Below are positions 13,261-59,472 of a stretch of 64,000 bases of DNA, in pieces; position 1 is the stretch's first letter, and every line of letters begins with the position of its first letter. The notes beneath the pieces were generated by a model. The model worked only from the letters and a program-made list of their open reading frames with translations. It made no database searches and had not been told where the DNA came from. The stretch lies in NCBI GenBank assembly GCA_964270895.1, contig OZ185439.1; one strand, given 5' to 3'. This DNA comes from Podarcis filfolensis. Its lineage: Eukaryota. The translations under genes and the position numbers were made by a program.

Positions 13261-13392
13261 TAAATTGACTCTAAAAGGTGCTGCAGTTGGATAATATTGC
13301 CCTTCAGGTCTAGTGGGTTAGTGGTGTCTGCACCACAAAACTGAAAATGACAACAGTTCTCCATCTGATCCTATTAACTGGTCTAACATATA

Positions 13393-13634
13393 CAGTGGTA
13401 TCTCAGGTTAAGTACTTAATTCGTTCCAGAGGTCCATACTTAACCTGAAACTGTTCTTAACCTGAAGCACCACTTTAGCTAATGGGGCCTTCTGCTGCTG
13501 CCGCGCCGCCGGAGCACGATTTCTTTTCTCATCCTGAAGCAAAGTTCTTAATCTGAGGTAATATTTCTGGGTTAGCGGAGTCTGTAACCTGAAGCATATG
13601 TAACCTGAAGCGTATGTAACCCGAGGTACCACTG
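13393..13634 (+). mobile_element. Tc1/mariner (Tigger/pogo-like) MITE, complete
   Basis: TA at 13391-13392 and 13635-13636; TIRs CAGTGGTATCTCAGGTTA / TAACCCGAGGTACCACTG; repeated internal taacctgaa motif. Confidence 0.9.
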
Positions 13635-19096: not shown

Positions 19097-19466
19097 GTGG
19101 TGGCACTGTGGTGTAAACCACTGAGACTCTTGGGCTTGCCGATCAGTAGGTCGGCACATTGAATTCGTGCATGAGGTGAGCGTCTGTTGCTCTGTCTAAG
19201 CTTCTGCCAACCTAGCAGTTTGAATGAGTACCAGTGCAAGTAGATAAATAGGTACCACTGCAGTGGGAAGGTAAAAAGCATTTCTGTATGCTCTGGTTTC
19301 CGTCATGGTGTTCTGTCACACCAGAAGCAGTTTAGTCATGCAGGCCACATGACCCAGAAAGCTGTCTGTGGACAAACACCGGCTCCCTCTACCTGAAGCG
19401 AGATGAGCGCCACACCCCATAGTCGCCTTTGACTGGACTTAACCATCCAGTGATCCTCTGCCTTTT
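19097..19466 (+). mobile_element. Sauria-type SINE, older diverged copy
   Basis: tRNA-like head, ctgccaacctagcagtttga, gtgcaagtagataaataggtacc, gtcatgcaggccacatgacc, gcgagatgagcgcc. Confidence 0.85.
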
Positions 19467-26179: not shown

Positions 26180-26520
26180 TAAAGGTAAAGGTAGAGGGAC
26201 CCCTGACTGTTAAGTCCAGTCGCGAACGACTCTGGGGTTGCGGTGCTCATCTCGCTTTACTGACTGGCCAAGGGAGCCGGCGTACAGCTTCCGGGTCATG
26301 TGGCCAGCATGACTAAGCTGCTTCTGGCGAACCAGAGCAGCGCATGGAAATACTGTTTACCTTCCCACCAGAGCGGTACCTATTTATCTACTTGCACTTT
26401 GACGTGCTTTCGAACTGCTAGGTTGGCAGGAGCAGGGACCGAGCAATGGGAGCTCACCCCATTGCGGGGATTCGAACTGCCGACCTTCTGATTGGCAAGC
26501 CCTAGGCTCTGTGGTTTAGA
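26180..26520 (-). mobile_element. Sauria-type SINE, young copy, slightly 5'-truncated
   Basis: aaaggtaaaggtagagggacccctga tail, gggagccggcgtacagcttccgggtcatgtggcc body, ggggattcgaactgccgacc B-box; many CpGs retained. Confidence 0.92.
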
Positions 26521-30529: not shown

Positions 30530-31156
30530 CAGTGGTGCCCCGCAAGACGAATGCCTCGCTAAACGAAAAACCCGCAAGACGAAAGGGTTTTCCGATTTTT
30601 TAGCGGCTTTGCAAGACGAATTTCCCTATGGGCTTGCTTCGCAAGACGAAAGCCCATAGGGAAATCTCCGGGGACAGCGGGGAAGTGCAGCGCGCCTTCT
30701 CCTCTGTTCCCGGACCTGTCCTGAAGGCTTGCGGTGGGAGGTGCGGGAACAGAGGAGAAGGCACGCAGCGCTTCTCCTCTGTTCCCGGGGCTTGCGGTGG
30801 GAGGAGGGTTTTTCCTCCCCACCGCCAACAGGTCCGGGAACAGAGTCCGGAAACAGACTCCTCCGCAGCGCTTCTCCTCTGTTCCCGGACCTGTCTTGAA
30901 GACTTGCGGTGGGAGGAAGGTTTTCCTCCCCACCGCCAACATTCAGAACAGCATTCTGAATGTTGGCGGTGGGGAGGAAAGCCCTCCTCCCACCGCAAGC
31001 CTTCAGGACAGGTCCGGGTCTGAAGGCGGTCTCCATAGGAACGCATTAATTGATTTTCAATGCATTCCTATGGGAAACCGTGCTTCGCAAGACGAAAAAC
31101 TCGCAAGAAGAAAAAACTTGCGGAACGAATTAATTTCGTCTTGCGAGGCACCACTG
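30530..31156 (+). mobile_element. Tc1/mariner (Tigger/pogo-like) MITE with GC-rich modular inverted-repeat interior
   Basis: TA at 30528-30529 and 31157-31158; TIRs CAGTGGTGCCCCGCAAGACGAA / TTCGTCTTGCGAGGCACCACTG; several subterminal gcaagacgaa motifs. Confidence 0.92.
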
Positions 31157-33814
31157 TACTTATCCCCCTTGAAAAGTATGGACTTAGCCCTTTGAGTGTG
31201 GAAGCAAAAGTCATGTGTTAAGCCACCTTCAAATAATTTATTTAGTATAATTTAATACCATCGCAACTCATGTTCTGCTTCTTTAGTTTTAACACCTTGT
31301 CTCACAACAACTGCATTGTTACTTGAATGATTGCCCTACTCATAGCATTTTAAGAGGCATGATTCATAATTATTTCATATGTTTACCTTGAAAATTTATT
31401 TGGCAGGTTAGGGGGCTTCTACAGAAATTACAGCTAGCCACTGGGAAATATGGACAAAGTACATGTAGTAGATGAGCAGTGCAAAGTGGACTTATTTGTG
31501 TTGTACCCAAAGGCATAGTTAAGGTGCCTAACAGGAGCACTGGTGTCTGTGGTTGGTTAGAATAAATCCTCATGGTCTGTTTGCTTACTTTTAAGCCTCC
31601 TGGGCTGCAAATCTTTATGCAGAAGGATGGATGTCTTGGTGAATGATCCAGAATGCTTGAAATTTTTAACTGACTGGCTAACATGTGAATAATAAAAACA
31701 ATACAGTCCCTGCCTGCTAGCTTCCAACCCAACTAACACAATACAAAAGGAGAAAGAGATGAGAAAGGAAGAGGAGGCAAGCACACACCAGCTATTATCT
31801 AAGTTTAAGGACTAGCTGTTTAGGGAGAGGATGAGCCCAAATGTTGTTGTTCTCATAGCAGGACAGGTGGAAAGGCCATTCCTCTCATCTCCCTCTCTGC
31901 TGTGGCCTGATAGAATGGTTGCTGCCATGTGGTGGTTGAGGAATAAGCCTGATGGAGTTGGTCTTCCAACGGAGTTGATAGAGTGGCCCTGCTTCCCAGG
32001 GTTCCCTCTGAATTAATCAGCCATTAGCTTCACTAACAACTGCTTTGTAAATGAATGCCTTTTTGATGTTTATGGATGTTTAAAGAATCTATGTCCCAAC
32101 CAGGCACTGTTATTGTCCAATGTGAACTCATTATGGCTCATTGGGTGCAGAGGCGTTTTATTTCCATAGGAAAGCTCTTGCCGACATGTGACAGATACGC
32201 TGTGTGAAAGGTTGCTGTGAATACCTGCTTTTTATATGCATTGTGACTGGTAAATGGTCACACTGAAGTGGTTAATCTTTGGACCTCTGCTATCTACTCT
32301 GGCAGAAGTCAAAGAGCAGTGATTTAAGAGGGGTGGGGGATGAGAACTCGGATACATCACTCATCTTAAATCTACAGCCATGCGTTGCAGCAGAAAATTA
32401 GCTTATTCTTCAAGCCACAGAGATAGACTGAATTGCTTAATAACCAGAAAGTGATGAGAGATAGAAAATTGAGTGCCGGGGAAGGAATCAAAAGCATTCA
32501 GTGTGTTCCCTTTTGGAAGCAAACGGAGCCAGATGAAAACAGAGAGACTGAAAAGCTGCTGAAGGTTCAGCCTACACAAGCAGGCTCTCTTCTGTACTTT
32601 CCCCCCTGCTTCTTTAAAATGGGATGTGAGGCTCCCTCAACACAGAATCCATCTACCACACAAAGAATACATCCCTACTTGACAGGAATGAACAGGTGTA
32701 ACAGATCTGACAACACTGCTGACTCAAATATTTTTCTGTACCCTTAAAAAGAATCTGCTTATACTGTCTGATGAAACTATCCCTTTGTTTTGCTTTCCCC
32801 CCTGCCGTTTATTTTTGTGGCTAGTGGATCCCTCCTTTTAAAGCATAAACTCACTGGTTTATTTTTATGCTCATTACTGAGGAGGAAAACAACCCTGACA
32901 CTTTGCACAGAGGAACAGCAGCCTTATCATTAAAGCTGGGTCAGGAGGAAAGTCCTAGCTGCAGCAACAGCTTCCTTCTTTGGCTGCTTCTTGAATGGTT
33001 TACTTGACTTGAATTTACAATGGCAGAAGCCATGGGAGCTGGTTCAGAATGTCAGCAACCTCTCTGCTCAGGGTTGCCCATTACAGCACTATTAAGCCAT
33101 TGTTTAGATTGGGTTTTGTGTGTCAGCTGGCATATGGTGGGATGTTCTGTTACCATATGCCCTGGTTGACACACCTGAGTGCACTTTTCAGACACGGACC
33201 CTTAACGTTTGGAGAGGAATTTTGAATGTTGTGTTAATGCTGGTGTTCAAGTGCTACTGAAATCTGATGTTCTTTTTAAAGAGAATTGAAGAGGCCTGAG
33301 ACGATAGTATTCCAGAGGAGAGCAGTGAATTTTATCAAGAAGAAATTAATGAAACAATTTATTTAAAGCACTTAATCCTAACCAGAATTTATGGTGCTAA
33401 TAAATGCTCAGAACTGTTCATTATTCTGGCAACTATAGGTAAAAGCAGGAGCTAAGCAGAAAAGCAAGCATGTGCTGTAAAATATCCCAATTCTCTAGTA
33501 AGAGTATGGAAAGGGGGTGGGGGAGAGGAAATTGGGCACAATTAGAGGGTTTAAAAGTGATTATTGATGTAAATGCTAGGGGTTTCTGGGATGAGACGGG
33601 TAGAGAAGAGAGCAGGTTTCCAGGGGGTGCAAATAAGTGAGGATAGCAGAGCAGAGGAAGAGGTGCTTTTCTTGGGGCAGGGGCACAGTGTGTCATGAGG
33701 GAAGGTATGTGAATAATGCAGTGGTTTGGCAAAGAGTTAAGAGCTGAAGAGCTTATGCCTTAGGTGTGCAGAAAAACTAGGTTAGAAACAGAACAAAATT
33801 CGAGGGGGTGTGGA

Positions 33815-33987
33815 AATAGTGCTTCAGGTTAAGAACTTTGCTTCAGGATGAGAACAGAAATTGCGTAGCGGCGGCACGGCGGCAGCGGGAGGCCCCATTA
33901 GCTAAAGTGGTGCTTCAGGTTAAGAACAGTTTCAGGTTAAGTGCGGACCTCCAGAACGAATTAAGTACTTAACCTGAGGTACCACTG
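33815..33987 (-). mobile_element. Truncated second copy of the 13393-13634 MITE family
   Basis: Reverse complement matches most of 13393-13565; one intact end aacctgaggtaccactg-TA. Confidence 0.88.
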
Positions 33988-35429
33988 TAGTGGTACCTTT
34001 CATTATCTGCATAGCTGACTGGTGGTGAAGTGGAGGCAATAGGGCTCCGGTAATGAAAAGGGAGATGGAGGAGGATGAGAATGCAAGATTTCTCATGCCA
34101 GCAGACATCTTTGGGAGAAAGAACCCCAAAAATCTGGAGCAACTAACTCTGGCTTTTTTGCCCAGGTTTAATAAAACAACAACATCAACAAAGAATAGAT
34201 TCCTGTTACTTGATGACTCATTTAAAGCATGATTGCGATGTTAAAAGTTTTAAAAGGTGCACACAGTTTGAGCACTCTCACTTTGCTCCTGCCACAGTGG
34301 ATCAGGGAAACAGCAGTTGACTTAGCGTTACATCTGAATCAGTTCTCATGGTTTGCTTCCCTCCATATAAACCATGATCTGAAACCAACATTTCTTTTGT
34401 GGGAGAAACAAGCCACAAGCATGGAACTTTTGCCCAGTGTGATTAAATAAACCATACCTCTTGGCTCAGCATTATGTCTGAATGCATCTTCTATGCACTG
34501 AAGGAGATATAAACCTGGCTTTCCCCTTAACCTTGCCTTTCTAATCAGAAGCTTCCTGCCAAACAGGTGTGTTCTTTTCCAGATGAAAAGTCTGCCTTTG
34601 TCTCTCAGCAGGCTGACTTTCAGTTTGTGTTAAAGCAAATTCATCAATGTTGCAGAATTCCAGTGAATTTGTGTTGGCACTTCAGCGATGAAATATGTGC
34701 TAGTCAAAGGTGCCTTTGTTTCCTGCCCAGTTCTGTGCAAGAAAATTACTTTGACGTTCATTTGCCATGGAAAATAGTGTCTGTCTCAAACAGCTCTGAG
34801 TTTAAGGCAAATCAATATCCTGTTTGTGGCTAATCTATAAATTAGGAGACCTGTCCAGAGTATTCTGGATCCATAGCAGAGACCTGAATTACGACAGTTT
34901 TGCTCTTGAGTAGTTAATTCTTAGATAATTTGCCTCACAGTTGCATTATTAATCTGAAAAAGAAATTTAGAATAGCATGGAATAGATGCATCTTTAAAGC
35001 ACAGTGCTGTTTAAAACAGGGCTTTTGTGTTTGTACTAATGTGCAGTTCAGTGACTTTATGAGAAGTTAGAAGTTGGGGTGCTGTGAATAAAGCACATTG
35101 CTAAGGGAAGAGCCAATTGAACCCAGCTTCAGATGTGAACCAGGGGATTAGTACAGATTTTAAAATATTTTTTGCTGGCTTTGCTTTATTCTGTTTTGCT
35201 CACCTCCTTCTGGAATTGAAACAGTGAGGAGGATGCATTTGAAGAGAGTTAAGTCACAGTTGCCTTGATTATATATATATATCGGATTTGTATAAGCATG
35301 GTAACAATAAACTTATCCAGTTGAGTTAATTGCTCAGAGGCAAGTTATGAGGCAAGCAATGTACTCCAGGGCAAATTTCTTACTTGGACAAATACCCATA
35401 ATTAAACTTTCAGAGCAAAGGAGCACAGA

Positions 35430-36300: not shown

Positions 36301-38295
36301 CTTAAAAATATGTTTTTCAATTGACAATATATATGAGTAGTTCATCAAGCATCACTCTCCTGGCTCCCACTCTCAGACAAAGTACTCGGACTCTCGACTT
36401 GAGAATTCTTAAAGGCTTTATTCCAAAAGTCATCACATAGTTTAAACATAGATTAAGATACAGGCTACAGAATCAGTAATTCAGAAATAAAAGTGTAAGA
36501 TACATGGCTGGCAGAAGCTAACACATTGTCACAACAGCTGACATGTCCACTTTGCTCCTGCTTTGCAGAGCGGGATGGTCACATGATTCATGTCCCAAAC
36601 AATGGGACTGGACAAGCAAGCGGGCACTCCTGTGTGTAGGCTGGATCTGCTTGCCAGCACATTTAACAGCACATCTTTGGAGATGGGGCCAGCTCACTAT
36701 CTGATTCAGGCTCATTTACCTCCCTGTTTGCCAGGGCAATCTCAATCTCTAGAGGCAGGTTGACAGCTGGGATGTCCAGCAGCATCTGGGCAGACTATCT
36801 GGACCCCTCCTTCTATTTCCCTCTCTCTCTGATAGATCCTGCCAGGACCATCCCTCCTTGTTTGATGCCATGGGGCTTTTGACAGTCACTTTTGACTGCT
36901 TTTATCAATTTGTTTTTATTGATTTATTCTCTGCTCTGACTCTATAGCTGCCCATAAGGTAATTTTACTTGGATATTTTATTCTCCGTTTTCCCCTTTTC
37001 ATCTTTCTGTCATATTCATCTCATTTCACATGTTTGGTACTTCTTGCCATTTATGCATGGCTGACATTAATAAGGTGGTACTATAAGGGAAGACTGAAAT
37101 CTTTGCAAAATTGCTGCTGAGCTCTCTACACTTAAAATACTGGATGAAATCCAGTATAGCGCTAAGTGAACAAGGATTGCTGCTTGTGCTGCTTGTTCTC
37201 CTTGAGGGGAGAAGGTCTCATTGTGTAGGTGGAAATCCTTACACTGACAGGGTGGGTTAGTTGAATACCACCCAATATTTTGAGAACACTTGAAGGGTCA
37301 GCCCAAACTTTCTCACAAGGAAGAGGAGCCCCTGAAAATGATGACTTCACCCTAGTCTTTCACTCTGGAGTTTATGGACAGGCACCAAAGTCTGATGGAA
37401 CTTCCTCTGGATGTCTACAATTGTATTGCATTGAGCGGTCACTCAGCTGCTCTCCACACACCCAGTTCCAGGCTTCAGAAGGCTTAGTGAGTTTCCCAGG
37501 GGATCTAAACGATGGCAGATGGGAATCCCTCCATTCATAGTTCGTTCTGTGGCCTCTTCACAGTTCTCCTTTTCTAGCTACTTAGAAGAGTGCTTTATAG
37601 CAAGCTCTCTTGCTCCGAAGTTCTGCAGAATAGGACTATGTAGGAAGGCTGGATCTGACTAAATTAAAGTGCAGTCATGTGTTATCTGTTTATGAAGGAA
37701 CCCCTCCCTGCACCTCATGAATACCATATGCTCCTTCTTACCATAGGAGGGCAGGGATAAAAGGTCATGCTGCATGTAGCTTGGAGTGAATCAATAACTT
37801 TTAGAAGTGCTAAGCCACACCAAAACTAATTATTTTTGTGGTCCAGAAAATACATTAGTGCTGCATTATGATGCTGGCATAGGCAAGTGGAATCCATCAA
37901 AGTCACTGGTCTCAGTTGGTGGGGGAGAGCAGCTTGCTTTGAGAAGAAGCTGCTCCTCCTGTTGCAGGCAGTGTTAAGGGGAGTGCTGAAGGGAAAGTGG
38001 AGGAGCGATCCCTGTTTCCTTCCCATAATACTTCTTGATAGAAATGTTCTAGCTACATACTACTCTGCCCCCCCTTCCAAGAGAGAAAAATTGGACTTAG
38101 TTTTGTTGGTTTACTTTACCCAAGTCCTAGAATGTCTGAGTGTGTTATGAATACAATATTTATAGAGGATATCACCTAGGTTGGGGACTCCTGGGGACTT
38201 CCAGCTACTCTTGTTCTCTTTGGATTGATAATATTGTTATCTAATATTAATGGTTTCCCCCCCTTGAATTCAATGTTTAAGTTTAGATATATCTA

Positions 38296-38541
38296 CAGTG
38301 GTACCTCTGGATGCCAACAGGATCCGTTCCGGAGCCCCGTTCACATCCTGAAGTGAATGCAAGCCGCGTCTGCGCATGCACGGGTCGCGATTCGCCACTT
38401 CCGCGCATGCACTTGACGTCATTTTGAGCGCATGTGCGAGCAGCGAAACCCGGAAGTAACGTGTTCCGTTACTTCCAGGTCGCCACAGAGCGCAACCCAA
38501 AAATGCTCAACCCGAAGCATATTTAACCCAAGGTATGGCTG
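38296..38541 (+). mobile_element. Tc1/mariner (Tigger/pogo-like) MITE, CpG-rich
   Basis: TA flanks at 38294-38295 and 38542-38543; CAGTGGTACCTC start, imperfect right TIR caaggtatggctg. Confidence 0.85.
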
Positions 38542-41530: not shown

Positions 41531-44500
41531 GTAAGTTACATGCATCTTTTTAATTCTGTTATTTCTTATGGAGCACTGTTCAGAAGAGTTTACCCTACTC
41601 TGTCCCGGCTGACTGCATTGGAAGCCTTACAGTATCCGGAGCTAGGGTTTAGCAAGCTCTCAAAATAGCAGCCCATGAGCAATAAATGGGGCATGTGCTG
41701 CCACATGGTTAAAGTCTAGGAAGGCAGAGCTGTGGCCCAGGAAGACAGACTTTTCCCAAGACTATCCTGAATTGAAAAAGAATGCACAGCAGGGTCAAGG
41801 TGGTTTCTCATTTGCAAATGTGTACTTGATAAGTAATGACTCTGGAAATGCACAGTGAGATCTTGGCAAACATTTGGAATGCAACTTAATTTGGGGGAGT
41901 GCTAGGATTATGTGAACATACGCAATAGTTGATGCTGACTTTTCAGTGTAATGGAATTCACTAAGCCATGAATAGCTATTTTAAGTACATTTCTAAATGA
42001 GGAGATTTTTCATAGAGAGAGCAATTAGGGTTATATTTTATTTTATCATAATTCAACCTGATTCCTGTACTTCCTTGCCTGTCAGAGCTGTGTAAATGGG
42101 CCTTCCTGAAGTTAAATAGCTTCAGGGAGGAAAAGGTCAACCTTCTTGTCCATTTCATTAAAACACACACAGAGAGAACTGGGGCTTAGGAATTTTGAAG
42201 CTTGGCAGTAGCTAGTCATACACTCGGTCCACCCTTCTTTCCCTTCAGTTACAATTTATTATGTTGATGTATTGCAAGATAACCTGAAGGTAGGGGTTAA
42301 TGATGCAGCATCCTTGTTCTTGTTGGCTTTCCTTTGTACAGTTCCTCTGCAGAAAGAGTACTGCCAAGCTCCAGACAATCTATTCAACTTAATTTTCTTG
42401 CCAGGAGTTGCTGTACCCGTTACTATGTTCTATGATGTTGTATTTTACAGATTCTCATTCATCTGTTCACTGTTGATTATATCAGCCTATGCTTTTTTTT
42501 TACTTCTTTTTTTAAACCCTTTCAGCACGTGCAGTAATTGAAAATGGGGCCCTGGATGTGGGAGGCTTCGCCACCATGCTTGGCTTAGTCTGCTAGTTTT
42601 AAGAAAGGGAAGCAGCTTCTCCCTGTCAGTGCAGTGGAGCATTCATCCCCCAGCAGTTCAGGGAGGTCATGCTGAATTCTTTCTTCACCACACGCCTGTG
42701 CTTTAAATAAAACCACCAGCAGCAGCAGGCGGCAGGTAATGAAATCAGCTCTGATGCACAGAGCAGTTTGAGGAGAGATTATTAGGAAGCAGGGAAGTGG
42801 TTTGATTTCTTCTTTCAAATGGAAGCATTACCCCAAAGTGGCAGAAAGATCAAAATAGAGAGGAGTTAATTAAAAAGAGGTGGGACCTCCGGATGGCATC
42901 CAAAGGAGGAAGGTCTAAGCTATGCTAAATGGTAGCCACTTCAATTTTGTGCATGGAGGTAAAGCTTTGGAGAAGGGGTGGAATGTTCAGTGAACACTCA
43001 AATTTTGTTTACCTTCCTATCTCCTCGCTGCTATTCACTGCCTGGTTTTTTAAACTGGACCATCTTCCTGGGACTAATGAACCTAGCCAATCACAGATCA
43101 GGTAGTGAGAGTAATGATTTCACTGAGGGCAAATGAAGCCAATATATTTGTTTATATTTTTAGTTATTAAATTTGTATACTGCCCCCATCATCTGTAGTC
43201 CTCAGGTCAGTTTACAACATAAAAATACAAGGCCAAAAAACCCCTCAAGAACAGAAACAAATCAATAACCACCCACACCTCCTTCCAGCAGGTTGCTTTG
43301 CCCTCACCATGAACCATGATATCAGAGATTAGGGATAGGAGGGATCTTGCACCTGTTGTCAAGGCAACCAGGCTTGGCTATCTTGGTCATTGCTACATTG
43401 GACTGGGGTGGATTCATTGGTTAATAGCCTTTTCTGTCACTGTCCCCACACAATAGGTGAACATTTGAGCCCCTTTTCTTCGACCCTTCCAAAAAAAATA
43501 AAAAAAATGAAGGAAGGGTCTGCATTTTGTAGATGCTTGAAAGGTTTTGAGAAACAACTCTCTTTGATTCAGCATTTCTCTATATGTCCATCCTAAGAGG
43601 GCCTTAGATCTGCTTCTGTAGTGAGAATCATGGAATCATTCTGGATATGGGATTCTGCTCTATTTTTTATTTTTTTAAGCTAAATATTTCTGAATGCTTC
43701 TGCTTTTAACCAATCTGATAATGAGCTAAAATATATATTCCAGTGTTTTGAACAAATAGCTTGACTAGATAGCACACACAGACTGTTAATAATTTGGAAC
43801 ATCATATTAAATACATTGGCTAAAGCAGGGGGAGGGTGAGAGAGCGCAATATTTTTTGGCAGTAGTGTGTTGTAAGCATTGAATATGCTTTTTTGAAAGG
43901 ATATCTCCTGTTAAAATCTGATAAGAAATCCAATTTTGTAACTTATAAATAATTAAGTAAATTGCATGATTATTCATGGGTTATATCAGTGCTTTTTTGT
44001 AATCCTAAGCATTACTACTATCAAGCATACAACTACCAGCATTGTAGTAGATAGGAGAGAAGTTACATCTGGTGAAAGGTCTGGCTATCTGGTTTTCAAA
44101 ACTAGGGAATGTCATTGTGATCAAGTCTACCCCCACCCCCACCCCCTGGCTATGCAGGCAACTCCACAAAGCATTTGTTGCATCCAGGCATTGTGATTTA
44201 GTTAACATGCTTCTCAGTTTGTGTCCACATGCAGGCTTTCCCAATTTTATAATACGTAGAGTACTTTTTATTGTTCACTATGCATTTGCCTCTCAATACT
44301 TGCTCATTTTTTGTCCCTCCATTTCATTTTCTACTCTACTGGATGTGGATGTGGGGAGGATAATTAAGTTTAACCCTCAGAGTGTGTGGGTTACTCTGCT
44401 GGTCACTCCCCCAAATAGATGGACCAGAACAAGCCATATTGTGGAAACCTTCAAGGTGACTGCTGTAATTTTTGCTGCACAGTCAGGGCAGATGTATTCA

Positions 44501-45392
44501 GCCAGTTCTGTCTTTGTGCCCCGTTTCTTTCAAGCAGCTGTAACAAAACTACTATATCATGCTGTCATTCCACATTGTCATTCCACATTGTCATGCATTT
44601 CCTATGTAGTTCTCCTGATTCAAACCTTTAGTAATTTTGCTGGGATTGTCTGTCTGATGACATTTAGCTCTTCCCTTAGTGATTACAGTTATGATGTAAT
44701 AAGAGCTCTGTTGCTCAGTAATACTAATTTGCGTAAAGCTATTAGCTAAATTTTCTTCTGCTCCCTCTGCTTTTCATCAGTTTATTTCAAACAAGTTTTT
44801 AAAAGCAAATAAACTTAGGAGTTGCTATTTGCAAGCTCACATATCCCCACCATGATCCTAAGTGCTCTGCTCTGTTCTCTTTACATCTGGGTATGTACTG
44901 AGTCCCCAACTACAAGTAAATTAATATAGTAGTTGCTTTAAGTGGCTGTTCTTGGTATTTTGAGCAGGAAAGAATATGTTCAAGCTTTTTCAAGCCACTG
45001 TTAATTTGTTTCATGGTCAGGTCATATATCCATGTCTTTGTGCATGTATATTTAGTACTCCAAAACCAATGCAAGAAAGATCTGAAATGGTCCTCATTGT
45101 TCTCAGGCTCTTTCATACACACTCACCAAAATACCACCAGAATTTCATAAATGTCCAGCTTTCATTTAAATATGAAGTGTACTCCGGAATTTTAACCTTT
45201 TTTCCCTGGGGCTTGAATTCCATGCTCATGAATGATATCAGCTTGCTGAAGTGGTGGTTTTCTTACTTCTAGTACACATTGTGCTAGTTTATTGTTCGAG
45301 TAGCACACATGAGTTATGTAATACCTTGTGACAGCTTTAGAGCATGCATATGACAACATTAATTGTGTCCCAAAAATATCCCTTCTTAACTA

Positions 45393-46225: not shown

Positions 46226-46711
46226 GTTAACTTTGCCCATTATGATCAGCTCAATGAGAAGATTACAATTTTTGCAAGATCAGGATGGAAGACATTCCTC
46301 TGATGGGGTGACACTTGCCACCAGATGTGACATGCAGGGTCCATCCAACCAGGTCTTCTGCCTCATCTCCAAAGGGAGGAGCCATTCTGCCCACCAAGCC
46401 TACCCAGTTTGTGGGTGGTCTAGGTGGTGGGTTGAATGGCACTATATAGCAGTTTATCTTCTGACTATATGGTGTGTGTGTTTTCCAATTTTTTCTAAAC
46501 TCTTTTTTTATCCAGTTTGGTTGAGTATGTTCCTTCCACTCCATGTTCTCATTCTGTCTCCTGCCGTGAAACATTAATTTTCTTCTTCATTAGTTTCTTT
46601 CCAGCCCCTTTCTTCTTCTCGTTCAACCCCATTAAGTGTTTGTTCTCCTTCCTCCACCACCCACCATCCCGGTGTGGTTCCCTGGGGTGTATGTGGGGTT
46701 TATTTTAGGAG

Positions 46712-47228
46712 TGATGCTGAGGAGTCCTGTGATCCTCAGAAAGGGTCTTGGAGGGTAGTTAGCAGTGGTTTCTCCTTTTGAGATTTGTCTAGTGACACAG
46801 AGCACAACAGTTCCCAGTCACCTCTTCCAAAGGTGGAAATGTTTAAAGTGGTCTTTCAGCCACACCCCTCTCCTTGTTTCCTCACCACTCCATAGTGAGC
46901 TATTCAGCCCTGCTCTCTGGTTCCAGGTATTCCAGCACCTTTAGTTCATCTGGACTGTCTGTGCTCCTTAGCCTTCTTGGCAATTGGTGTGTGGGCATTG
47001 TTTGAGAACAGAGCAGCTTCAGGTGCATCTCACCAATAGACTGGCTTGGCAGGAGCATCATTTTGGATTTCATGCATGTCTGCAGGTACTGGTTTCCCAC
47101 CAGGAAATTAGCTCAGCGGGGAGGCCTGTTGAGGCTAGGGCATTAGGTACTAGGTGCATCGTCCCAATAAACTGGCTAGGCAAGAATACATTTCCTATGC
47201 TATAGGTGTTTAGTAGTTCACCGTCACA
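46712..47228 (-). mobile_element. Solo-LTR-like element
   Basis: TG...CA termini with GGAG on both sides (46708-46711, 47229-47232), ~517 bp, TTTAAA box near 46843; alternative left end at 46728; orientation inferred. Confidence 0.5.
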
Positions 47229-47314
47229 GGAGTGTGCTAGTCAGTAATAACACAGTTCAAAGATGGAGTTAACTTTCTATTAGCAAAAACATGACCTCCA
47301 CAGACTTGGTTGTG

Positions 47315-47804
47315 TGTCAGGCCTAATGAGCAGAGTAGCTCATTCCCAATGGTCTTCTTCCATGAAATGGTCTTCTTCCATGAAAAGTCCCTGCCTCCTC
47401 ACCAGGGCTTTTCCCAAGCAATCAAAGACCGCACATGCATGCAGTCAACCTCTCCTCCAAACTTTTTCATATCTCTTCTGGTTCTGGGAGACAAGTGGGG
47501 AAGGGAGCTTGCTGCAGCAGGAAGAGGAGACACCTGTGACTCTTCATCAGCCTGACTCATTTCTGCCTCTTGGCCTCCTTCATCCTACTGTCCTGCTTCA
47601 ACTTCTGCCTCTGATTTTGGACTTCTCTCTGCCACAGACTCTCCCAGCTCACTAAGTCCTGTTACCTCTTCAGCTTCTAACACCTCTTCTTCCCAGTCTT
47701 CTCCCTCTGACTACTCATCGTTGTCCCACCACCACTCCCTGGGCTTTGAGCCTTCTCCAGCTGGTTCCTTCCATCATTCCTCTTTCTCCAGCCAGTTCAT
47801 GGCA
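47315..47804 (-). mobile_element. Solo-LTR-like element with decayed acidic ORF
   Basis: Minus strand begins tgccATGaac and ends ...ttaggcctgaca; ~490 bp; 18-bp internal tandem duplication near 47349-47384; no TSD found. Confidence 0.6.
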
Positions 47805-50800
47805 ATGACTATATCCTAGGTATAGATTAAATTTGAATTTAGACGTTTGAATTTAGAAACTATAGGTGGTAAACTACTAATGCATCAAAGTGAACACAAG
47901 AATTTCCGCTTGCACAGTGAAACTTCCCTCCCTCTCCACTTCCTGTGCACACCCTCACCCTCCTCAAATTTAAGAAGCATGCAGGGGGAGGTGAGGTGAG
48001 GTTGGAGAACATACCGTTGCACAAACAATAGTCCTTGCACTGATGCAACAATTGCCTTAGTGTTATGTTGGATTCCACCCTATATTTTTTCCTGTTTTTT
48101 TGTGGTTTGCTTATTTCTACTGTACTCCAACTCCTGGCCCACACGTCTTGTATGCTGGGATATTCTTAAACAAATCTTTACCATTTGACTGCTAATTATT
48201 TTAAGGGCTGTTGCTTGTTGGTAAATCTAGTTATTTCAAATAATTAACTTTGATGTTACTTCAGTTAATTAACTTGAACCAATTAATCTCTTGTTTTATA
48301 GATACTCCTTGTCCCATCCAAGCACTTGGGGTCAGAAAGCACTTTCTGCTACATGGCGGCGGGGTGGGGGGGACTAAGACAGGACTAATCAAGGAGGATC
48401 TTTTCGCTACTAAGGATGTTCAGATTCTGTGTTTCTAATGTGCAGTTAAAAGGCAGTGGTTGGGATACTAGGGATCCTCTCACACCAGGTGTTTTTTATT
48501 GTACAGATATAGAGGTCAAGAGTTAAGACATCCTGCTATGCAGCGCTAAACATCCAGCATGGAATGCCTGTCCTGGTGTCAGAATAGCAAGCTGAGTTTA
48601 GTCGTCAACATATTTGTTCCTAGCTGTCCTGTACAATAGGGTGTGCTATCTTAAGTCTGCATGAGGATGCAGGCAGAAACATTTTGAGAGACAAGGCTGC
48701 TATTTTGAACAGCTTTCAAAGTGTTGTATGATGTGTCTAATTTTAGGTACTCTTTCAGAGATGGTTTTGTTTACTGTTTTGGTATATTGAAACTTGCCAC
48801 GAGCCTCTGTGATAGGGTAGGTTCAGTGGTAGTAAAACTGCTGCTCCCTAAGCATCAACTCAAGAGTAGCATAGCAGATTATTAACCTATTTTCTATTTA
48901 TAATCCAAATTCACTGGGTTACAGGCTAGTGCTCAGAGCACACTCATTAGTTCTATTTTTTATTATCTCTGCATTTGCTTGTAGAAAAATGCCTAGTAAC
49001 TTCCAGAATTTAATTCCATCAGTTGGAGCAGGGGGTACTTGTGGCTTTCTTAACACTGAGACTTAATGTGTTGGGACTTGTGAAGCTCACTGAGATTTTT
49101 GTGATGGAGGATGTTGTCAAGTTCAAAGTGATGCTGTTGATTAGCCCTGCCATTAACCATCTGCTCCAGTTGGTTAAAGTGCCACTGAAGAACAATCAAA
49201 AGAGTCTGCATTTAAAATAGATTAAATTACAACTTTTTGCATCTGATATTAAAGAAGGAGCTGTCGCTTGTTAGCTTTTGTGAGCATTTGATTATCTGTA
49301 TTTTCTATCCCCCCCAGTTTTAACCCTTTCCTGAAACGAAGGGGACAATAAGCACTGACTGCTTTCAGGCATTGACTTCAGTAGCATGACATGCAGGTGC
49401 TATGTAAGCTGCCCTCCTGACACTGCCTGCCCGCCCGTTGCTTTCCCCTGGATTATCTGCGCTGTGTAGGTGACATCTATTCCCCATGGTGGCAAACTAG
49501 GTCATCTGATTTTTGTTTGCTTCCTAGGAGGGGGAAGCAGATCAACCACTATGTCTCCTGGAGCATCAGAACAAATGCTTGTGAGGCAAAAAGGTGCAGT
49601 GTCTGTAGGGAGACAATGTAAAAGCAGGAGAATGAACGCTGCTTTGGTGGTTGGTTTGCCTCTCACTTGCAGATGCTGTGAATTCAATTCAAAGTGTTAG
49701 CGGGCAAAGACTGTCAGCCCCTAGGTGCCCAAAGGGATGCTTTTCATTCCACATGAAGGGAATCCTGCATATCTCGGCTGAGATGTGTCACTGTTCTGTG
49801 TTGTATCTGTCCTGGAGAGCCAGGAGATTGAATAATGCCAAATTAATGGAGAACTAGGTGCAAAAAAGGGGTCACTATTTTGTTAAATTGAAATAGCTGT
49901 ATTGAGTCCCGTCAAGGGAAATGGTGGGTATAAAAAATGTATAAATAAATAACTATATGGAGAGCAACCAAATTTTTAGTTTAAGGAGAGCAGGGCAAGT
50001 CAGAAGGGTGATATGCAGGTGCCAAACAAATGGACCATTGTACTGACATTCCTCTCTTCTCCTTGAGGTAGAGGAGGGTAGTTTTCACCTGCTGTACCTC
50101 TTCCTGGTGAAAACTGAATTCTGGACACTAGGATGAGGGATGGCCCTATTTTCTTAATAGGGTTCAAGATCTTTACAGAGCTTCTTTTTCTTACCATGTT
50201 CTCTTCCCTGTCTTTGCTAATTAGAGGCCCATGGTACCCAGACCAAAGTAAGAAAGAAAATATACCCTATGCCATCCTGTCACTTTAAGATTACCCAGTT
50301 TTTCTAGCCCTTGGTTCTCCTCTGGTGGGGAGTCATGTCCTTCCTGCCAATTTCCCAATACGCAGGCTGGGGAAAGGCTGCTAGGCTGCTGTCTCCTAGG
50401 TGCCATTGCTACCTTGCCTGATTCATCCCCTGGTTAAGAGCCACCTGTCAGGCAGAACCAACGTGGGTCAAGTGCCTTAAAAGCTGGACTGTTGCAAACA
50501 AAATTGGTTGTCCCTCAACTTCACAAATAAAATATTTTTGATCTCTGATGTCTTTAGTTTTATACCAATAGCTTTAAAAAATTTTGGAAGCGTGTTGGTT
50601 TCTTTTTACAGTACTTGGAATCTGAAAGTCAGCAAGATGGTCAGGTATATGGTTCTATCCCTCTTCTGACGATGGGCAGATAAGGGTCTATGTTGAACGT
50701 ACCATATGATTGCCTGGCAACCATTCCTCTTGCCACCAGTAGCAGCTTCTGAATGCTTTGCTCCAGTGAAGCAAGCAAACAATCAAAATAAAACAAAGCT

Positions 50801-59000: not shown

Positions 59001-59472
59001 TGTCATGACTCTAGAGTCTAGCAGCAAACCAGACTCTGAGGCTGCAGAGGCTGCAGCTAAGGAGCTGAACCAGATTTAGGGCTCTGAGCCTGCTGTTGGA
59101 GATTGGAAGACCAGTGAGGCTGACTAACGGGAGCACCCAGAACAATCTCTCACACCACCAGGATCTATAGGACCAGAGCCAAGACCCTAATGGGAGCCTT
59201 CCCCCTGAGCCTGAGGAACAAAATGCCTCTCACAATAGCAGCACAGGGAGGAACATAGGCAGGAGGCTATGGGACAGAGGAAGAGTGCCTGTCTTCCAGG
59301 CAGAGGATTGACCCTTTAAAATCTAAAGTTATCCACAAAGGCAAGGAGCCTGGGAAAGGCAGTCTGGGTAGCAGAGACTAAAGAAGACTCAGTCTGCTCT
59401 CAACCTTTGTTGAATGAGTAAGTTGCTTGCTCAGAGCTATCCATGGTTCTGCAGCTCCTGCCTTGCCTTACA
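59001..59472 (+). mobile_element. Solo-LTR-like element
   Basis: TGTCA...TTACA termini, flanks gctg / tctg (3 of 4 match), TTTAAAA box at 59315-59321; alternative right end near 59553. Confidence 0.55.

Follow-up and report, generated by a model that had tools for sequence, protein, structure and literature searches.

The window, a 64,000-nucleotide stretch of Podarcis filfolensis contig OZ185439.1, contains three LTR-like elements, termed E1, E2, and E3. We focused on E1, a probable solo LTR on the minus strand whose first part carries a decayed acidic reading frame. The features that bear on this element are as follows:

47239..47804, minus strand: E1, a high-copy lacertid repeat and probable solo LTR of ~566 bp (from read depth, ends, and a target-site duplication search)
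47798..47804, minus strand: 5' terminus of E1, containing the ATG, with one mismatch to the Sushi attachment motif TGTYANR
47471..47800, minus strand: decayed frame of 110 codons, acidic and Trp-rich and then Ser/Pro-rich (from translation and shuffles)
47774-47776, 47711-47713, and 47585-47587, minus strand: stops in this frame (from translation)
47380..47470, minus strand: end of the frame, shifted out of phase in E1 and interrupted by another stop at 47422-47424; other copies are basic here
47382-47804, plus strand: Ser-rich frame, 141 codons with a single stop (from translation)
47348..47385, no strand given: 18-bp tandem duplication, likely promoter/R region of E1, a poor match to other copies
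47276..47281, minus strand: position of a poly(A)-type hexamer, ~40 bases from the 3' end of E1
46712..47228, plus strand: E2, LTR-like, tail to tail with E1 and flanked by a perfect 4-bp repeat, with AATAAA at 47166 and a weakly acidic frame in the same phase
59001..59472, plus strand: E3, LTR-like, with both ends fitting Sushi motifs, flanking 4-mers that agree at three of four positions, and an ATG at base 5

Other repeats lie elsewhere in the window. A GC-rich block at 30535-31158, in which direct and inverted repeats are nested (the 65-nt arms are 94% complementary and separated by 5 nt), is probably a MITE-type element. Two inverted copies of a ~300-bp repeat at 19171-19465 and 26187-26462 presumably represent a Sauria-type SINE. 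A 177-nt inverted pair lies at 13391-13567 and 33813-33989 (89% complementary), and related ends occur at 31116-31158 and 38293-38352; these are likely ends of the Tc1/mariner MITE type. No stop-free frame in the window is longer than that at 44051-44749 on the plus strand, which has 232 codons.

The extent and abundance of E1 were examined through depth profiles of four public runs over 46500-48100; part of this stretch was present in 20 of 24 runs. Depth was flat over the flanks and E2, at 11.7 in run X1 and 6.85 in run X13, and peaked within E1 at 49,917 and 26,897, respectively. This is an approximately 4,000-fold difference in read depth, a ratio that does not equal copy number. An earlier note on this DNA had ended the element at 47400. 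However, the high depth persists from ~47800 down to ~47240-47250, so the element is ~566 bp long, with its 3' end placed to within ~10 bases. Depth falls to 474 in the bin 47364-47417, at the 18-bp duplication. E2, which lies 10 bases from E1 and has an internal 34-bp repeat, was at single-copy depth at 80% likeness, despite its 4-bp repeat, AATAAA, and intact 3' motif. Upstream of E1, at 48012-48100, depth rises again (181 versus ~12 in X1), marking another repeat of lower copy number.

Most copies of E1 have diverged. Among the 5,208 X1 contigs on 46500-48100, 129 were at least 99% alike and 4,437 were less than 95% alike. In X13, the 3' junction of E1 was spanned by one contig (46500-47343, 18 differences) and the 5' junction by another (47727-48093, 16 differences). 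Since the insertion is common to a lineage that is 2-4% away in these junction pieces, it is old. The family is lacertid because the named protein relatives are gene models of Podarcis raffonei and P. lilfordi. E1 is the remnant of an old, very abundant lacertid repeat family, and this copy is dead, neutrally decayed, and of no likely function. Seven of the nine best-supported near-fixed differences listed between E1 and the other copies are the same strand-specific transition, and none is in a CpG. This bias hints at deaminase-type editing, strand composition being the other possible cause; for bird ERVs, a passage of PMC4866542 describes deaminase-type editing that turns Trp codons into stops.

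Translating the minus strand from 47800 gave the same 110 codons and three stops as in the earlier note. The frame bias in acidic residues was likewise reproduced: our recount over the first 90 codons gave 31 Asp/Glu in this frame and 8 and 5 in the other two. In dinucleotide shuffles, the best frame averaged 17.8 ± 1.8 Asp/Glu, and none of 20,000 reached 31. Nowhere else in the six frames of the window was there a 90-codon stretch with at least 20 Asp/Glu, other than this frame's own overlapping windows. The periodicity is visible in the codons, with G at 55 of 110 first positions and A at 45 of 110 second positions. Simple-repeat expansion was excluded as its source, as no tandem repeat scoring at least 50 lies inside the frame and a low threshold shows only runs of 10-12 bases. 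The count of six Trp codons is marginal (P = 0.024), and three stops in 110 codons are within chance (P = 0.20).

The E1 family carried a longer open frame than E1 does. Near 47756, E1 has five codons fewer than most copies (a gap against the protein P0003), and 191 contigs in X1 and 168 in X13 have loose ends behind this point. The proposed one-base shift in the tail is supported near 47463-47470, where the tail of protein P0005 scored 54 with the shifted frame versus 16 with the continuing one. Loose ends at this frameshift were found in 42 contigs (X1), 33 contigs (X13), and 26 reads (RNA run X23). Among the positions listed, ~92% of the depth differs from E1 within the second stop codon. 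This difference, together with the loose ends at the frameshift, implies that at least some of the breaks are private to E1.

The same frame was found in database proteins. An index-free search of 1.84 billion representatives returned nine matches at E ≤ 0.001, of 55-185 aa, all in the E1 frame, and a word-indexed search added P0003 (two matches among 14 candidates). P0003 (XP_053240991.1) and P0013 (XP_053240971.1) are from P. raffonei, and P0008 (CAI5773736.1) is from P. lilfordi. In all three, the matching part begins at the same Met as in E1 and is open for 84-89 codons; in P0003, ~88 codons are open, and the 88 residues include 31 Asp/Glu and 7 Trp. A stop-free frame of 110 codons was seen in 0.27% of shuffles, a figure to be read with the fact that the compared records had been preselected by gene callers. 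The LTR piece forms the end of each of the three models, preceded by host sequence, which in P0013 includes a SCAN domain (Pfam). Podarcis SCAN zinc-finger-like gene models thus have, as their last part, a copy of the LTR frame that is open over 84-89 codons, possibly through exonization or through annotation that reads into an intronic LTR. The three look like products of one locus or gene cluster, and we therefore count them as about one observation.

Other copies extend further. P0005 and P0006 run uninterrupted from an acidic part (11 of 49 and 15 of 72 residues Asp/Glu, respectively) through a Ser/Pro linker to a basic tail (11 of 33 and 10 of 28 residues Lys/Arg). P0011 changes frame in midsequence, and the tail of P0006 scored nearly equally across the frames (20, 22, and 21). 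The tail of P0002 fits the shifted tail of E1 (67 versus 25), so the basic tail has not been kept in all lineages. Among the homologs, most are singletons and products of gene callers. Since gene callers and our search selected them, they show inheritance of the frame and not selection on it. In Pfam, P0001, P0004, and P0006 had no match (for P0001 and P0006, no family at E ≤ 1), and P0005 had a single sub-threshold match, KAAG1 (E = 0.041). The best ESM Atlas score for residues 123-210 of P0003, 0.78, was within chance. Taken together, these data support one half of the earlier note's main claim, an inherited protein-coding frame in the first part of a repeat family; the other half, a separate activator or chromatin-tethering microprotein, is not demonstrated by them.

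We regard E1 as a probable Gypsy LTR and do not assign it to Tf1/sushi, its superfamily being unproven. The Sushi 5' attachment motif is TGTYANR (PMC3601003 Table 3), from which E1 differs at one base, and the Val-Met ahead of the frame in P0003 and P0008 would agree with this motif in those copies. The likely 3' end of E1 has two mismatches to the Sushi motif CNTNACA, and a search of the flanks found no 4- to 6-bp target-site duplication around it. At 566 bp, E1 is close to the Sushi training mean of 572 (PMC3601003). It matches both the ~570-bp length and the 3'-proximal position of AATAAA that the same source gives for Tf1/sushi LTRs, with the hexamer at 47276-47281 being canonical in most mapped copies and degenerate in E1 itself, which has no canonical poly(A) hexamer. 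The Sushi U3 is described as T-rich in section 12 of PMC3601003; the first 60% of E1 is 16% T and 66% purine. The upstream flank is devoid of a purine tract (longest run, 4), and we therefore read E1 as a solo copy. Sushi-type end motifs with a near-target-site duplication occur 12 times in the 64,000-nt window by pattern alone, so the end motifs prove little.

We also looked for full-length elements. A 20-base pattern returned one viral and four metagenome loci as candidates. In all five, the match covers just 20-21 bases and CpG depletion is missing, and we consider them chance matches. Further sequence patterns gave no matches, and P0005 had no relatives in the 296 viral or the 600 genomic stretches that were candidates. 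The alignment offered no segment of sufficient conservation to serve as a search seed.

E2 and E3 have no BLASTN match to E1. The most acidic frame of E2 has 9 Asp/Glu versus 2 and 2 (86 of 5,000 shuffles reach 9), with no ATG at base 5. E3 has a moderately acidic decayed frame with 16 Asp/Glu versus 5 and 7 (87 of 5,000 shuffles reach 16) and a basic patch ahead of TTTAAA at 59315; these shuffle P values for E2 and E3 are uncorrected over four tests. The E3 count is the highest among the 12 end-motif pattern matches. Compared with E1-family proteins, the E3 frame scored 30-39, values reached by 281 to 1,184 of 2,000 shuffles. In all three elements, the most acidic frame begins at element base 2, for which the chance is 1 in 9. 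The similarity in layout that the earlier note saw in E2 and E3 is weak, more so for E2 than for E3. We consider a U3 design that recurs across the three elements plausible.

Expression was assessed in one RNA run, X23, of which ~12% was read and for which strandedness is unrecorded. E1 drew 406 reads in both orientations (peak bin 48.9 versus 128.1), while its flanks were at no depth. None of the 406 was 99% alike, and 95 in 100 continued into unrelated sequence. These reads thus suggest that host transcripts carried other copies of the repeat, and the E1 copy itself showed no sign of expression in the ~12% of the run.

How, then, might the frame have been expressed? LTR transcription starts downstream of U3 in the U3-R-U5 architecture. 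The ATG of E1 is upstream of the likely promoter, and we infer that the LTR's own transcript would lack it. An ATG that lies upstream of the likely promoter and inside the attachment motif is weak evidence of a start, and the frame could be read only from a 3' LTR inside a longer RNA. In Gypsy elements, pol ends adjoining the 3' LTR, and pol read-through would be the simplest route of expression. The common phase of the acidic frame in E1, E2, and E3, with E2 having no ATG, fits a phase that is set upstream. We therefore favor, with about even confidence, the reading that the U3 frame of E1 encodes the end of pol/integrase, translated on into the 3' LTR as happens in the plant CRM group A.

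In detail, E1 would be a solo LTR left by a lacertid family of Ty3/Gypsy type, probably Tf1/sushi-like. In its active ancestor, part of U3 would have been protein coding, the pol frame crossing the polypurine tract to enter the 3' LTR and U3 supplying the last ~140 residues of integrase. This tail would begin with a flexible acidic stretch interspersed with Trp, continue with a Ser/Pro linker, and close with an Arg-rich end that would serve nuclear entry or chromatin tethering at integration. Every LTR copy would inherit the frame, and a solo LTR would remain silent unless a host transcript spliced or read into it. The composition alone suggests that the basic end could be a nuclear localization or chromatin-tethering motif; the acidic and aromatic residues fit an activation domain and equally any disordered tail. 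The absent target-site duplication, the two mismatches at the 3' end, and the T-poor U3 (16%) are points against a Sushi-type LTR origin. If the frame is an integrase tail, a vertebrate retrotransposon would have a candidate targeting module, and the acidic, Trp-rich ends of lacertid gene models would be explained.

No pol-length protein with an E1-type tail appeared among 486 candidates, among 7,999 candidates, or among the nine index-free matches (longest, 185 aa). We treat this as weak counterevidence to an integrase tail because most copies are less than 95% alike and an intact pol may be lost. It would also suit the model of the earlier note, in which the LTR encodes a separate small protein, an activator or chromatin tether. 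Such a protein would start at the ATG at base 5, be made by a spliced or internally initiated RNA of the 3' LTR, and serve the element itself. The Met of P0003, P0008, and P0013, the ATG at base 5 of E3, and a frame that occupies U3 and stops ahead of the likely promoter agree with such a protein. However, the ATG falls on positions 5-7 of TGTYANR, where it is expected 1 in 8 times by chance, and E2 shares the phase without an ATG. The X23 reads look like passengers in host transcripts, and P0001 has no Pfam family at E ≤ 1; we consider a separate protein rather unlikely. A parent other than Gypsy is the most doubtful of the origins weighed here. The frame would then still be coding, either in an ERV (as an accessory gene or an env/pol tail in U3) or in a DIRS or nonautonomous non-LTR-type repeat. 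The internal domain is unseen, E1 has no target-site duplication, the Sushi-type ends recur 12 times in the window by pattern alone, and crocodilian solo LTRs of ERVs and Gypsy elements are described in PMC4299795 as not distinguishable. On the other side, the 5' end (one base off the motif), length, and 3'-proximal poly(A) signal suit Sushi over the retroviral motifs given in Table 3 of PMC3601003.

The periodicity could also stem from something other than a minus-strand frame, either a regulatory U3 that is rich in purines and structured in triplets or a mirror image of the plus-strand Ser-rich frame. Such an origin is consistent with a stop count that is not below chance, with homologs that are largely singletons and gene-caller products, and with a plus-strand frame that has fewer stops than the sense frame. 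Codon shuffles of the plus-strand frame kept at least 32 Asp/Glu in 7,065 of 10,000 cases, so the strands are not separable in this way. However, there is no tandem repeat beneath the frame, and 32 of the 35 Ser codons in the plus-strand frame are TCN (P = 0.0007 versus one-third AGY). This excess is the shadow expected of antisense Glu codons, and a pyrimidine-rich strand pushes in the same direction. The sense codons alone yield one stop or fewer in the plus-strand frame in 53% of shuffles (P = 0.53). Moreover, the sense frame points the same way as the poly(A) signal, and its acidic, linker, and basic parts follow one another in order. We ranked the plus-strand Ser-rich frame below the sense frame and hold a noncoding or mirror origin to be quite unlikely.

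The reading of the frame as an integrase tail can be extended, although we regard the extension as speculative and improbable. The U3 of several unrelated reptile Gypsy families would encode an acidic-plus-arginine-anchor module that docks either the integration complex or a free microprotein on the nucleosome acidic patch, as HMGN does. Thousands of solo LTRs would then be ready last exons, which Podarcis SCAN zinc-finger genes would have started to adopt.

Coding within an LTR is already known from plant chromoviruses and a few retroviruses. Among the latter, MMTV sag and HIV nef are accessory genes coded in U3. E1 is like them in having a U3 coding frame and differs in that they are known proteins while P0001 has no Pfam match; neither P0001 nor P0006 showed Pfam homology to retroviral U3 accessory proteins (E ≤ 1). 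Sag and nef were the precedents that the earlier note named, but the closest one, plant chromoviruses with pol running into the 3' LTR, had been overlooked. As for the HMGN-like tail that it proposed, RRSARL occurs in none of the 13 proteins compared. The nucleosome-binding core of HMGN and Dsup is given as RRSARLSA in PMC12487698. The likeness, from sequence comparison only, lies in a short Arg-rich motif closing a low-complexity stretch, with an R-S-x-R-L pattern in one of the three natural copies that reach the tail (P0006), while RRSAR is absent from all E1-family sequences.

The passages on Tf1/sushi in PMC3601003 and 10.1101/2022.12.06.519325 mention no U3 frame. E1 resembles these vertebrate chromovirus LTRs in length, in its 3'-proximal poly(A) signal, and, to within one mismatch, in its 5' attachment motif, whereas its U3 is purine-rich, T-poor, and coding, its 3' end is degenerate, and it is known from a solo LTR alone. 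In the literature searched, no coding LTR is reported for Gypsy elements of lizards or of any other vertebrate, although one may already be noted in Repbase/Dfam or by Butler et al. (2001), which lay outside the search. In plant chromoviruses, the pol frame enters the 3' LTR and encodes an integrase targeting tail there, according to passages of PMC3059260, and the Beetle and Bingo elements are described as further cases of the CRM group A type (PMC3605345). E1 shares with CRM group A a U3 that holds coding sequence, in the position that an integrase targeting tail would occupy in a Gypsy-type element. As described in these sources, CRM group A elements have angiosperm hosts, TGATG/CATCA ends, a 5-bp target-site duplication, and centromere targeting; E1 has different ends and is lacertid. 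Read-through has been shown for CRM group A, whereas for E1 it would follow from a likeness of layout. Taken together, we believe that E1 may have worked like CRM group A, yet it is not a member of that group.
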